64,000 nt of DNA from Sedimentisphaerales bacterium. GTDB taxonomy: Bacteria > Planctomycetota > Phycisphaerae > Sedimentisphaerales > SM23-30. Position 1 is the first letter of the stretch. Every line of letters starts with the position of its first letter. The notes under the pieces are model-generated. The model saw nothing but the letters and a program-made list of their open reading frames with translations, was not told the origin of the DNA and searched no databases. The stretch is taken from NCBI GenBank assembly GCA_963666285.1, contig OY762711.1; one strand, given 5' to 3'. Positions 24,623 to 43,670 of this stretch are shown in pieces. The position numbers were made by a program, and so were the translations under genes.

Positions 24623-25795
24623 CTACAGCTTAAAACCAAAACCGGAAAGCATTTTTTTAACTTCGTTTTCAATGGAGTTGCTCCCATTCAAAACTATTTT
24701 TGTATTCGCGGCCTCTCGCCTTATAGGATAATTTTTTCGCAAATGGTCAAAATATGAACCAATATTACCAGGTTCTTTAGAAAGAATTTCTCTCATATTT
24801 GAATCGTCATATTGAATGTCATATATAGATTTTACTGCTGATGAAAGTACTTCTTCAGCAGTGTTAAATCTGGAAAGGTCATATTCGAGACATTTAACTG
24901 ATGGTTCAGGCATAAACTCTGAAGAATCAATATGTGGCTCCATATCGATAAAACCACATAATGCTTCATAAAGCATTCTTGTCCCGTTTACCTTGCCATC
25001 AAAGGAATAGCCTGCTATATGGGGAGTAGCAATCTGTGTCATTTTCACCAGTTCCAAATCAGGAGTTGGCTCATTTTCCCATACATCGAGAATAGCATGA
25101 TTACTACTATGTTCTGCTAACCAGCCTTTAAGTGAGTTATTACATACTACCGGCCCGCGAGAGGAATTAATTAAAATCGAATTATGACCTAAAAGTGATA
25201 ATTCCTGTTCAGATAAGAGATGATAAGTTTTATCTGTGCCTTCTTTTGTTAATGGAACATGGCAGGTAACTATATCAGCGTTAAGAACTTCTTCAAGAGA
25301 CGAATACCTGTCCGAATCAGAAATTCTAGCTAAAGGAGGGTCATTAAGCAAAACTTTCATTCCAATAGCTTTTGCCTTAGCTTCAACCAGAGTCCCAATA
25401 TTACCTACTCCGATAATGCCTATACTTTTATCAGACAAAGAAAACGATAGCCTCCCTGCCATAACGAGCAAGGCAGAAAATACATATTCAGCTACAGAAT
25501 TAGCATTAGAACCGGCAGAATTAGTAAAAAATATTCCTCTTTTTTTTAGGTATTCCTGATCAATATGATCAATTCCTATCGTAGCTGTACCAACAAATTT
25601 AATTTTAGAATCATGCAAGAGTGATTCATTTACTTGCGTTACAGACCTGACAAGAAGCACATCTGCATCAGATACGATTTTACTGGTTATCTCTCTGGCA
25701 GAAAGAGTGTTAACTTCCCCTATCTCATTAAAAAATTCGTTTACATATGGGATATTTTCATCAGCAACAATCTTATATTTATAATTATTCTGCAT
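24623..25795 (-). CDS. pdxB: Erythronate-4-phosphate dehydrogenase
   Basis: ADENIP, VRSVT, GTATIGIDH, NANSVAEY, GVGNIG, DVWENEP, TPHIAGYS, LRKNYPIRRE. Confidence 0.93.
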   Translation of the reverse strand: MQNNYKYKIVADENIPYVNEFFNEIGEVNTLSAREITSKIVSDADVLLVRSVTQVNESLLHDSKIKFVGTATIGIDHIDQEYLKKRGIFFTNSAGSNANSVAEYVFSALLVMAGRLSFSLSDKSIGIIGVGNIGTLVEAKAKAIGMKVLLNDPPLARISDSDRYSSLEEVLNADIVTCHVPLTKEGTDKTYHLLSEQELSLLGHNSILINSSRGPVVCNNSLKGWLAEHSSNHAILDVWENEPTPDLELVKMTQIATPHIAGYSFDGKVNGTRMLYEALCGFIDMEPHIDSSEFMPEPSVKCLEYDLSRFNTAEEVLSSAVKSIYDIQYDDSNMREILSKEPGNIGSYFDHLRKNYPIRREAANTKIVLNGSNSIENEVKKMLSGFGFKL

Positions 25796-25916
25796 ATAGT
25801 TCAAACCTGCGTTTTATAGAAGCCTGGTTCATATTTCTTCAAAGTTGTTCTAAGATAAAACTATCAAATTGCAATAAAACTATTGACCTATTTATCTAAT
25901 TATTTATCATATAAAG

Positions 25917-26006
25917 CCTTAAACTAAAAGTATTGCTGCCGCTTACCTCCCTTCAGGCAGCATTCACCGGCAAGTGGAACTCCCAGACACTTGCCGGACT
26001 TTTTTT
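25917..26006 (+). ncRNA. Candidate ~90-nt sRNA with two CUCCC-loop hairpins
   Basis: Promoter TTGACC(25883)-16 bp-TATCAT(25905); hairpin tgctgcc/ggcagca; hairpin ccggcaagtg/cacttgccgg followed by T7; both flanking genes are on the minus strand. Confidence 0.6.
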
Positions 26007-26090: not shown

Positions 26091-27146
26091 TTAGGCATGC
26101 TCTGCTAATTTTTGCCGTATCAGATCTGCCCTGAACTGATCTCTGTGGGCTGCTTCCAGATTGTTTCCACATAGAAATTGTAGATGAGCCGGTTGTACAA
26201 GCAGCATTATTTCATTAATTACTCTTAAGGGTATCTCAATTTTTCCCATGGACACTCCCATACGCAACTGACTTAGGAAAAACATCGCTTCCTGAGAAGT
26301 AATCAACCTTGCATTTGTCAGGATACCCATCGCCCTGTATATCTTGTCATCCACCAAAACAGGGGATTCTTTTAATAGCTTTTCACGAGCCCGGCGTTCA
26401 TATTCAACAATAGGTTCAATCGCTAAACTTGTTATCTCTTCAATAATCTGTTCTTCTGTTTTACCTAAGGTTGTTTGATTTGAGACCTGAAATAAATCCC
26501 CGGCAGGCTCGCTGCCTTCGCCATGTTGACCGCGAACAGCAAGATGCATATCTCTTGCCGCATTTAATACCTTCTCAATCTGCTTAGTAATATGCAATGC
26601 AGGTAAATGCAGCATTGCCGAAATTCTTATACCAGTACCTACATTAGTTGGACATGCGGTTAAATATCCATATTGAGCAGAAAAAGCATAACTGACCTTC
26701 TCCTGAAACTTATCTTCAATACCAATGACTTCCTTCCATGCAGAATCAATATCCAATCCACTGCTGAAAGCCTGTATCCGAAGATGGTCTTCTTCGTTGA
26801 TCATAACAGAAAGAGATTCATTAGGTGATACTACAACGGCAGTACCTTCACAATCATTAGCAAGCCTCTCTGTTATAATATAACGCTCAGCCAAAATTGC
26901 ACGTTCCAAAGGCAGCATATTTTCTAAACTTTTGAATACCATATTTTCTGAATAAAATGGCATTTTCAGCTGCTCGGCCGCAAATTCAATAATTTCCTGA
27001 CGTTTTTCTTTACATGCCCTGGAGACAAACGGAAACCCAGAAAAATTTCTGGCCAACCGTACCCTGCTGGATATTACAATATCAGATAACGGTCCTGAAC
27101 CATCCATCCATTCAGCCAGATTGTGATAATTCCCGCTTATATCCAT
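26091..27146 (-). CDS. mcsB: Protein arginine kinase McsB
   Basis: SSRVRLARN, INEEDHLR, GYLTACPTNVGTG, FQVSNQTTLG. Confidence 0.95.
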   Translation of the reverse strand: MDISGNYHNLAEWMDGSGPLSDIVISSRVRLARNFSGFPFVSRACKEKRQEIIEFAAEQLKMPFYSENMVFKSLENMLPLERAILAERYIITERLANDCEGTAVVVSPNESLSVMINEEDHLRIQAFSSGLDIDSAWKEVIGIEDKFQEKVSYAFSAQYGYLTACPTNVGTGIRISAMLHLPALHITKQIEKVLNAARDMHLAVRGQHGEGSEPAGDLFQVSNQTTLGKTEEQIIEEITSLAIEPIVEYERRAREKLLKESPVLVDDKIYRAMGILTNARLITSQEAMFFLSQLRMGVSMGKIEIPLRVINEIMLLVQPAHLQFLCGNNLEAAHRDQFRADLIRQKLAEHA

Positions 27147-27160
27147 AAAACTCACCAAAT

Positions 27161-27655
27161 TTAACAATTATTAGTATGAGACAGCTGAGATATTTCATCT
27201 CTGATCTTAGCAGCTGCTTCATAATCTTCTTTATCTAACGCTCGCTGTAGCTCATGCTTGAGCTTCATACATTTAAGTTGATTAGCTCCCGATCTGGCAG
27301 CTTCTCCGGCATTACGGCCAATATGCCTGGTAGCACCTTCATGCGCCCTGGCTATTACCTGCTCAATAGCTTCACCAAAAACATCATAGTCATTTGGACA
27401 TCCCAACAGACCTGTCTTTCTAAACTCTGCCCAGTTCATATTGCAGTCGGGGCAGGTAATTTCATTTAATTTATCAACTTCCTTGTGCGCATCTACCAGA
27501 TGATTAAACATTTTATCAAGAGGAACATGTGACTTAACAACAATACCCTCTTCAGAAGCACATTCTTTACAAAGGTGCCTTTCTACTTTTTCACCATTAT
27601 TTACTTCCGTCAGGTGAACAGTAGCCTGGTTTTGTTGACATTTATCACATTTCAT
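27161..27655 (-). CDS. mcsA: McsA activator (CxxC motifs plus UVR domain)
   Basis: CDKC, CKEC, CPDC, GLLGCPNDY, EDYEAAAKIRDEI. Confidence 0.93.
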   Translation of the reverse strand: MKCDKCQQNQATVHLTEVNNGEKVERHLCKECASEEGIVVKSHVPLDKMFNHLVDAHKEVDKLNEITCPDCNMNWAEFRKTGLLGCPNDYDVFGEAIEQVIARAHEGATRHIGRNAGEAARSGANQLKCMKLKHELQRALDKEDYEAAAKIRDEISQLSHTNNC

Positions 27656-39741: not shown

Positions 39742-39747
39742 AAAAAA

Positions 39748-39854
39748 GTTGGCGGCGACTTACTTTCACGCTCACGCACTATCATCAGCGTTAGTGCCTT
39801 AGCTTCTGAGTTCGGAAAGGGATCAGGCGTTTCACACTAACTATGACCACCAAC
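39748..39854 (-). rRNA. rrf: 5S rRNA (short, ~107 nt)
   Basis: Minus strand GTTGGTGGTCATAG...CCGAACTCAGAAGCTAAG...AGTAAGTCGCCGCCAAC with paired ends. Confidence 0.95.
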
Positions 39855-39990
39855 AGTTCGGAAGAATAACAGGTCCAAAGACCTGATTCATTACACTTGT
39901 TGTATCATATAATATGAGGTAAGGAACAAAATTTGCAGGATACCATTTATAACCAATTATCCTTAGAGCTTTACAGCTCAAAAATAATGT

Positions 39991-42847
<2,857 letters not shown>

Positions 42848-43022
42848 ACATTATTTTTAAGCTGTGGTCATATCGCTCTAAAGATTCATCAGTTTTATAA
42901 ATGGAATTATATTTACGAAATTGTAATTTTAATAATTATGTGCAAGACACTTATATTCATATCTTTACGATATGATTCGCAAGTATTACCTACAAAAATC
43001 ATTACCTTTACCTCATATTAAA

Positions 43023-43275
43023 TTGTCAAAGAACTTCGCTTTATTGCGAGCCGTAAATTTTAACAGCTCTTATTTTCTTTGTCAAGAACCTTTTTGAAAT
43101 TTTTTATTTTTTTCGTTTCAGGTTTCTCAACTAGCGAGCCTTATATATTAAGGCCACTTCCCTTTCTCGTCAAGTGTTAATTTTATTTTTTTTGAAGTTT
43201 TTTTTAACTCCTAAAGATTAACACTTTTGTTGATCAAGGGATGGAAGATTGTATCGTTAATTTTATAATTGTCAA
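43023..43275 (-). promoter_or_regulatory. Three tandem sigma70-type promoters and a boxA-like element upstream of 23S
   Basis: TTGACA-17-TAAAAT (43085-43057), TTGACG-17-TAATAT (43173-43145), TTGACA-16-TACAAT (43275-43248); boxA-like GTTCTTTGACAA at 43034-43023. Confidence 0.75.
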
Positions 43276-43308
43276 CAATTAAATTTAACTTTTTTTTTCA
43301 ATCTTCAA

Positions 43309-43381
43309 TGGAGACGATCGGGATCGAACCGACGACCTTCTGGATGCAAACCAGACGCTCTCCCAGCTGAGCTACGTCCCC
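43309..43381 (-). tRNA. tRNA-Ala(TGC)
   Basis: GGGGACGTAGCTCAG...TTTGCAT...GGTTCGATCCC...CTCCA; G3:U70 pair; CCA not encoded. Confidence 0.97.
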
Positions 43382-43596
43382 TTGAATCGCTGACACTTCA
43401 CCACTGTGACATGCAGCTCTTTATTTACTTGTTATATTTAGCTCAGCTTGTCTTTTAACCATTTGAATAAAGCTGATACTAATACTATGACAAGGAAGAT
43501 GAAACCCATTGATCTAATTAAGGTTCTCATCGATGCCAATATTGTAATAAGCATTTAGCTTTCTCCGTTTTACGGTTATCTTAAGCCTGCTAAAAA

Positions 43597-43670
43597 TGGG
43601 CCCAGATGGAGTCGAACCATCGACCTCTCCGTTATCAGCGGAACGCTCTAACCAACTGAGCTATGAGCCC
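43597..43670 (-). tRNA. tRNA-Ile(GAT)
   Basis: GGGCTCATAGCTCAG...CTGATAA...GGTTCGACTCC...GGGCCCA cloverleaf. Confidence 0.97.

Follow-up and report, generated by a model that had tools for sequence, protein, structure and literature searches.

A promoter, a pair of hairpins and a terminator conserved as one unit across a family of Phycisphaerae, with a loop predicted to pair with Shine-Dalgarno regions

The gap between a pdxB-like and an mcsB-like gene of a Sedimentisphaerales bacterium (contig OY762711.1) contains a conserved stand-alone unit that consists of a promoter, two hairpins and a terminator and has the layout of an RNA gene. We refer to the whole stretch of DNA that was analysed, 64,000 nucleotides in length, as the window. 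In the reading that we favour with moderate confidence, the unit would produce a small RNA of about 90 nt, the first loop of which would pair with the Shine-Dalgarno regions of mRNAs and hold down their translation. The unit is a member of an uncatalogued RNA family of one GTDB family of Phycisphaerae, and the type of regulator is one that is already known.

The regulatory RNAs of Planctomycetota are, to our knowledge, almost undescribed. Literature listings and abstracts searched for small RNAs in Phycisphaerae or Planctomycetota contained no relevant paper, and a 2022 survey lists only eight families of small RNAs from Rfam across the PVC group as a whole (PMC9029176). The family described here is a computational prediction with a familiar mechanism, and it offers a concrete, testable case of a short RNA, with its seed defined, from bacteria that lack Hfq. 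The boxes at three predicted targets are conserved where the surroundings have all changed, and the replacement of the seed within one genus would constitute a natural experiment in the rewiring of an RNA regulon.

The locus and its relatives

The original prediction placed a promoter, two hairpins with their loops and a run of seven U residues on the + strand, and every one of these coordinates is right, as is the assignment of both neighbouring genes, PdxB-like and McsB-like, to the - strand. The features of the locus are the following.

25883-25888, + strand: -35 hexamer TTGACC; ATTGAC is kept here in the relatives' 44 distinct upstream sequences
Between TTGACC and TATCAT, + strand: promoter spacer of 16 nt
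25905-25910, + strand: -10 hexamer TATCAT, which ends 24 nt before hairpin 1
About 25916-25918, + strand: predicted transcription start, placed from the position of the -10 hexamer
25916-25933, + strand: 5' leader of ~17 nt, present in the window copy only; no relative has one
25934-25962, + strand: hairpin 1, 7 bp, in which TGCTGCC (25934-25940) pairs with GGCAGCA (25956-25962)
25941-25955, + strand: loop 1, GCUUACCUCCCUUCA, 15 nt, with the anti-Shine-Dalgarno-like seed
25963-25966, + strand: linker UUCA
25967-25997, + strand: hairpin 2, the terminator stem, 10 bp, in which CCGGCAAGTG (25967-25976) pairs with CACTTGCCGG (25988-25997)
25977-25987, + strand: loop 2, GAACUCCCAGA, 11 nt, a second C-rich loop
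26000-26006, + strand: U7 tail (T7) of the intrinsic terminator; a U-run after hairpin 2 is also present in relatives
24623-25804, - strand: neighbouring gene for a PdxB-like 2-hydroxyacid dehydrogenase with DUF3410
26091-27167, - strand: neighbouring gene for an McsB-like ATP:guanido phosphotransferase
27161-27655, - strand: McsA-like gene with a UVR motif

The predicted fold of the 90-nt + strand RNA consists of exactly the two hairpins, with the leader AAAAGU paired to the tail ACUUUU (-31.9 kcal/mol, z = -5.68), and none of 200 shuffles matches this folding energy. Three of the listed sequencing runs contain the stretch, and none of them is recorded as RNA. The - strand has no U-run after hairpin 2, and the fold of the whole 286-nt intergenic gap on that strand is unremarkable (z = -0.20). 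Promoter-like sites number 7 in 4.5 kb, against 16.2 +/- 3.8 in shuffles, and a single match is not above chance; the window promoter carries weight because it is conserved at a fixed distance in the relatives.

Two features of the surroundings are recorded in passing. The genes for the McsB-like arginine kinase and the McsA-like UVR-motif protein (26091-27655, -) are adjacent in all four genomes of the genus; this gene pair is best known from Firmicutes. Further along the window (39747-43670, -) are a 23S rRNA gene, a 5S rRNA gene and two tRNA genes, and no 16S gene is found there. The rRNA genes are unlinked, since both 16S genes of the genome (C1:1183643 and C1:1451086) are far from the 23S and 5S genes.

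The element was initially described as an orphan, a description that does not hold: we identified 21 genomic and 30 metagenomic relatives. A first covariance model led to more distant members, and a second model (R2), built from eight of these, was searched against 151 genomes of the order. Of the 24 other genomes in the GTDB family, 21 have a strong R2 match (E 1e-6 to 1e-18), always one per genome. G004, which belongs to the same GTDB family, gave a weak match that proved on inspection to be just a terminator, and two incomplete family genomes (85% and 62% complete) had no R2 match. The 126 other genomes of the order gave weak R2 matches only (E >= 0.001). The window element is the sole R2 match in its own genome and the lowest-scoring true member (36.4 bits, E 8e-5), and the genus members syntenic with it score 43-44 bits. 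The element is single-copy in the window genome and in each relative, and no canonical family copy was found elsewhere in the window genome.

Pattern scans extended this set. A scan of one genome per species returned 20 contigs with titles naming Sedimentisphaerales or Phycisphaerae, a few of them apparently mislabelled, and a metagenome scan with a family-type hairpin 1 pattern returned 30 contigs. Because the latter pattern fixes hairpin 1, the metagenome set adds nothing on the hairpin 1 stem. A metagenome scan with the genus-type hairpin 2 had 0 matches. An Rfam search, one of the checks proposed with the original prediction, identified no known family: nothing on the window reached the gathering threshold, permissive E-values gave two sub-threshold matches that are both unrelated, and the loci of five relatives, which are typical members, gave nothing.

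Two loci were considered as possible paralogs and rejected, as each directly follows a same-strand ORF and has the look of an ordinary terminator. The first, in the window genome (L041, C1:3768907-3768983, -), is located ~39 kb before the window start and 80 nt after a 575-aa same-strand ORF. It has two strong hairpins, a loop reading UCUCCCAG and then a terminator on a CCGGCAAGG stem that resembles the one of the window element; these hairpins probably represent the 3' end of the 575-aa gene. The second, in a genus relative (L032, G003 C1:2422107-2422169, -), has a terminator loop, AAUUCCCAGA, that is one base off loop 2 of the window element.

Three other genomes of the genus have a homolog in the same pdxB/mcsB gap, with TTGACC kept, a -10 hexamer of TATTAT, a nearly identical hairpin 2 and a fully replaced hairpin 1 stem. 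The pdxB/mcsB flanks are restricted to this genus. Outside it, a convergent Ogt-like gene lies downstream in 12 of 18 loci and 6 of 18 have a PtsN-like gene upstream, with a sulfatase, MurD or lipid kinase gene elsewhere; the partner gene differs between genera and is absent at some loci. Given this turnover of flanking genes, the element is neither a leader nor the terminator of an adjacent gene, and it has moved as a whole. The window genome has a PtsN-like gene too, but the gap that follows it, a possible ancestral place, contains no such element. Other classes of element were ruled out on simple grounds: a 5' leader or riboswitch by the lack of a downstream + strand gene, a peptide gene by the conservation of neither frame nor start codon, and a repeat or mobile-element RNA by the single copy and the lack of mobile-type neighbours.

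A typical member of the family begins with ATTGAC, ~18 nt, TAnAAT and 5-8 nt, followed by an RNA start at G. Next come a 5' hairpin (GAAGCGUU/GGCGCUUC) with a ~14-nt loop (UUAUCUCCUUUCGC), a linker of 1-3 nt, a large-looped terminator hairpin of 10-13 bp and a U-run. Hairpin 1 of the relatives begins at the predicted +1, and the two-hairpin fold is predicted for all 22 genomic sequences. TAnnAT ends 5-8 nt before the first base of the RNA in 20 of 22 genomes, 20 of 22 promoters agree with the consensus at 9 or more of its 12 bases, and ATTGAC and TAnAAT are conserved across 44 distinct upstream sequences.

The homolog search with covariation analysis that had been suggested recovered a family with a maintained fold, with 12 of 17 pairs changed on both sides. 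In alignments fitted to the covariance model, 95.7% of cells are paired for 22 sequences (0 of 500 shuffles as high; 26-50% in slid controls) and 97.0% for 70 sequences (42 distinct), where the count of 12 in 17 pairs recurs. Helix 2 holds most of the variation, and helix 1 varies only in the window's genus and two other genomes. The genus relatives have a hairpin 1 stem of AAGUUACC/GGUAACUU, which still pairs, and a loop of UUUAUCUCCUUUCG. The hairpin 1 stem of the window differs entirely from those of the genus relatives and of other genera, yet pairs, and its hairpin 2 has one extra G and is otherwise nearly identical across the four genomes.

G.U cells outnumber A.C cells on the + strand by 59 to 6, or by 26 to 6 without one nearly fixed pair. 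The G.U excess, the one-sided U-run and the promoter together fix the + strand. Along with the different flanking genes in other genera, this bears out the claim that the element is an independent + strand unit as opposed to a terminator of its neighbours.

Loop 1 and its predicted targets

Hairpin 1 carries the motif UCCUUUC, a repeat of the 16S 3' tail (CCUCCUUUC), in 41 of 42 distinct sequences; the sole exception is the window copy, with ACCUCCCUUC. This loop-1 motif is kept while the stems change. The 16S genes of the window genome (G000) and of two other family members (G020 and G017) have a predicted 3' end reading GGAUCACCUCCUUUCU. By our count, loop 1 of the window agrees with the 16S tail, UCACCUCCUUUCU, in 10 of 13 positions, and it keeps a closer copy of the 16S core, ACCUCC.

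Loop 2 is a frequent second C-rich site and is not universal: the top of hairpin 2 has CCC in 28, YCC in 35 and no YCC in 6 of 41 distinct sequences. The C-rich loops described on the two hairpins, reported as CUCCC, are real features of the window, but CUCCC does not define the family. With regard to the translation machinery of the host, a Shine-Dalgarno core 4-mer precedes 39% of first ATGs in the window genome, compared to 9-11% at control positions. No Hfq gene was found in this genome, which has one CsrA gene.

We looked in the family genomes for ATG codons preceded by the complement of the invariant part of the loop. The 12-mer GCGAAAGGAGAU recurs at the start sites of the same genes across different genera, and all orthologs were fetched for three gene groups. 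Group A is a giant secreted protein (2,000-2,900 aa) that begins MANGLRKLIKRARK, group B is a ~640-aa membrane protein and group C is an OmpA-family lipoprotein. In these groups, which were picked because they showed the box, the 10-mer GCGAAAGGAG is present in 6 of 9 group A orthologs outside the genus (8 of 9 have CGAAAGGA), in 13 of 20 group B orthologs and in 13 of 21 group C orthologs. With the discovery genomes left out, GCGAAAGGAG is found at the start site in 3/6 (A), 9/16 (B) and 11/19 (C) orthologs outside the genus.

Complementarity to the loop at the ribosome-binding sites of the three groups extends up to 16-17 nt, and the group A gene of G018 has 16 perfect complementary bases. 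The flanks of the box are unalignable on both sides in all three groups, and unrelated DNA flanking the RNA genes contains the 9-mer GCGAAAGGA a single time in 54.6 kb. The GCG prefix of the box is not explained by the 16S tail, because GCG cannot pair with it. In G015, the loop reads UUUCC and the group A target GGAA. One position further out, loop and target give counts of 12/2 versus 4/5 (Fisher p = 0.066, for genomes that are related and not independent), a covariation that is no more than suggestive.

The box is also found upstream of genes for a DUF481 outer-membrane barrel, a redoxin lipoprotein, an FMN reductase, an M17 peptidase and an oxidoreductase. By our own sums, the GCG-, CGG- and CCG-prefixed forms of GAAAGGA-N4-12-ATG occur 341, 265 and 187 times outside the genus, a modest excess that is confounded by base composition; the corresponding sums for the three genus relatives are 4, 19 and 10, and the window genome has 8 of each form. 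Three family genomes without a detected RNA also have the box. A scan of the neighbouring 3 kb at 22 loci for a recurrent cis target found none. As a separate observation, the window genome has three identical copies of GCGAAAGGAGAACCAAAATG (C1:2683184, C1:4206522 and C1:5411001, all -), presumably the start region of a repeated, possibly mobile, gene.

For the family, comparative support for the predicted pairing of loop 1 with ribosome-binding sites is unusually concrete. The preferred mechanism would start at a sigma-70-type, constitutive-looking promoter, from which an sRNA of ~90 nt in the window genome and ~75 nt in other genera would be transcribed. The loop 1 segment UCCUUUCGC would pair in the cell with the box GCGAAAGGA of extended Shine-Dalgarno sites, and occlusion of the paired box would be expected to cause repression, as against other outcomes. 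Loop 2 may have a role of its own.

The window copy and alternative readings

The suggestion that the RNA targets ribosome-binding sites fits the family, in which, outside the window's genus, the loop complement is conserved at the start sites of three ortholog groups; for the altered loops of the window, no target could be called. The seed of the window copy has changed from UCCUUUCGCG to CUCCCUUCAGG and now reads CUCCCUUCA. In most of the other genera, duplexes between the loop and the three targets reach about -16 to -26 kcal/mol, compared with -11 to -14 kcal/mol and 7-9 remaining complementary bases in the genus relatives; these duplex energies took in a few stem bases. For the window loop, the orthologs of these targets in its own genome give just -5.2 to -6.9 kcal/mol, and it matches none of them.

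No target stood out in scans with the window's own loops. In a genome-wide target scan with the window loops, 10 of 40 flank-shuffled controls performed as well, and the top candidates in the window genome are heterogeneous, some with doubtful start sites. Words complementary to loop 2 occur before start codons of this genome in about the number expected by chance. The best loop-2 candidate, a 961-aa protein with UCUGGGAGU before its ATG, was rejected because its paralogs in one genus relative start with plain AAGGAG sites, and the second was rejected because it has no relative in the genus.

These properties raise the alternative that the window copy is a drifting or re-purposed ortholog, still made, that has lost the ancestral targets and has either no function or a new, lineage-specific one. 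The weak duplexes are what this alternative would predict, and the 17-nt leader unique to the window copy, its 16-nt promoter spacer in place of the relatives' 18 nt, its rank as the lowest-scoring true member and the lack of a canonical copy elsewhere in the genome point the same way. The promoter, the terminator and both hairpins are nevertheless intact. Seven Watson-Crick pairs make up the rebuilt hairpin 1 stem, an argument for the fold being under selection; hairpin 2 has hardly changed within the genus despite unalignable flanks, and the loop retains an even closer copy of the 16S core, ACCUCC. On this balance we regard drift or re-purposing as rather unlikely, although it is the strongest of the alternatives. 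Because the unit is intact and the fold clearly maintained, we infer that the window copy is a functional member with a shifted target set, and it probably still binds Shine-Dalgarno-like sites.

A second alternative holds that the RNA is a protein decoy, in which a 16S-tail-like loop on a near-invariant stem (GAAGCG/CGCUUC) titrates a protein that binds the 16S 3' end or CU-rich RNA. Such a role would account for the repetition of the 16S tail in the loop and for a degree of constraint that exceeds the needs of the fold alone, as stem 1 hardly varies outside the window's genus and hairpin 2 varies freely. The window's genus, however, has swapped this stem twice with the loop motif kept, and the locus shows no link to a candidate partner protein. 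Pairing accounts for the conserved complementary boxes found at three unrelated start sites and a decoy does not, and we consider the decoy improbable.

That the hairpins are merely the 3' end or terminator of a convergent minus-strand gene, mcsB here and ogt elsewhere, is very improbable: most loci do place the element convergent with a gene, the - strand has a partly U-rich stretch after hairpin 1 and no other terminator-like site follows mcsB on that strand, but the U-run and the conserved promoter are confined to the + strand, the G.U to A.C ratio favours that strand, different genera have different partner genes or, at some loci, none, and the - strand fold is unremarkable.

Relation to known RNAs and to other elements

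Reading the element as a small RNA that pairs with Shine-Dalgarno regions invites comparison with several characterized groups. The MicA/RybB-type RNAs of Enterobacteria need Hfq, are transcribed from a sigma-E promoter and carry their seed at the 5' end. The window family resembles them in its predicted envelope targets (an OmpA-family lipoprotein, a DUF481 barrel, a membrane protein and a giant secreted protein) and differs in having no Hfq, a sigma-70-like promoter and a seed located in a loop. The 6C RNA of Actinobacteria (RF01066) has two hairpins whose loops contain a run of about six C residues, is thought to pair with G-rich mRNA sites and is found in bacteria without classical Hfq use. 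The window RNA has no Rfam match to it, and its loops are CU-rich with at most CCC.

RsaE/RoxS of Firmicutes is similarly a short trans-encoded RNA; its unpaired C-rich regions block initiation by pairing with G-rich Shine-Dalgarno sequences, and Hfq is not required (PMC4409812). Independence from Hfq is a further likeness, in that the window genome has no Hfq gene. The two nonetheless belong to different phyla and share no Rfam sequence or structure match, the sub-threshold matches being unrelated. The window family has two hairpins only and a seed, CUCCUUUC, that copies the 16S tail, whereas RsaE/RoxS has several UCCC-type regions. Its promoter looks constitutive with no known regulator, unlike that of RsaE/RoxS.

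The cuckoo/CcsR RNAs of Alphaproteobacteria (RSs0680, SmelA075/A099) are alike in having adjacent hairpins, an anti-Shine-Dalgarno-like loop motif and stems that change freely by compensatory mutation (PMC4615179). They have the identical motif CCUCCUCCC in each of two to four adjacent loops, and occur in several copies or clusters (PMC4615179). The window RNA, in contrast, is single-copy, its loops differ from each other (GCUUACCUCCCUUCA and GAACUCCCAGA) and CCUCCUCCC is absent.

Weak matches of the family's model also led to a separate conserved, mostly single-copy RNA-like element in another Phycisphaerae family (L124-L147, G154-G280), present in 19 of the 20 genomes searched, with 3-4 copies in G262. 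It comprises an A-rich upstream region, TGAACC-N16-CGTAT, a variable 5' hairpin, an invariant GUUCCUUCCUUCUCCCCCACGAA and a terminator; TGAACC-N16-CGTAT looks like an ECF-sigma promoter. The terminator stem and CCC loop of this element align closely with those of the window family (GCCGRYGGUCGUAU...CCC...CGACC.UCGGCUAUUUUU), which hints at a wider superfamily that would contain both RNA families. The OmpA-lipoprotein orthologs of the other Phycisphaerae family showed no extended complementarity to its conserved CU-rich stretch.

A broader interpretation, which we advance tentatively and hold to be possible but less than probable, is that the family acts as an Hfq-independent envelope riboregulator of this planctomycete lineage. 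A constitutive 75-nt RNA with a 16S-tail-copying loop would compete with ribosomes at the extended box GCGAAAGGAGAU, co-evolved on the mRNAs of the OmpA-type lipoprotein, the giant secreted protein and the membrane protein. The family would form a branch of a class-wide Phycisphaerae superfamily that includes the other family's RNA with its apparent ECF-sigma-type promoter, and its seed would have been rewired to new targets in the window's lineage.

Further candidates with loops of this kind were encountered. At C1:5682813-5683303 of the window genome, 1.8 Mb off, is a ~450-nt RNA candidate with two hairpins that show UUUGCCUCCUGA, the second of which is a terminator; it carries other motifs and is unmatched by the family's covariance models. 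The window genome therefore has at least two different anti-Shine-Dalgarno-loop RNA candidates. In another family of the order, G130 gave three weak model matches (C71, C37 and C40), and the terminator loop at one locus of this genome (L056) contains GUUCUCCUU, perhaps representing yet another anti-Shine-Dalgarno loop RNA.
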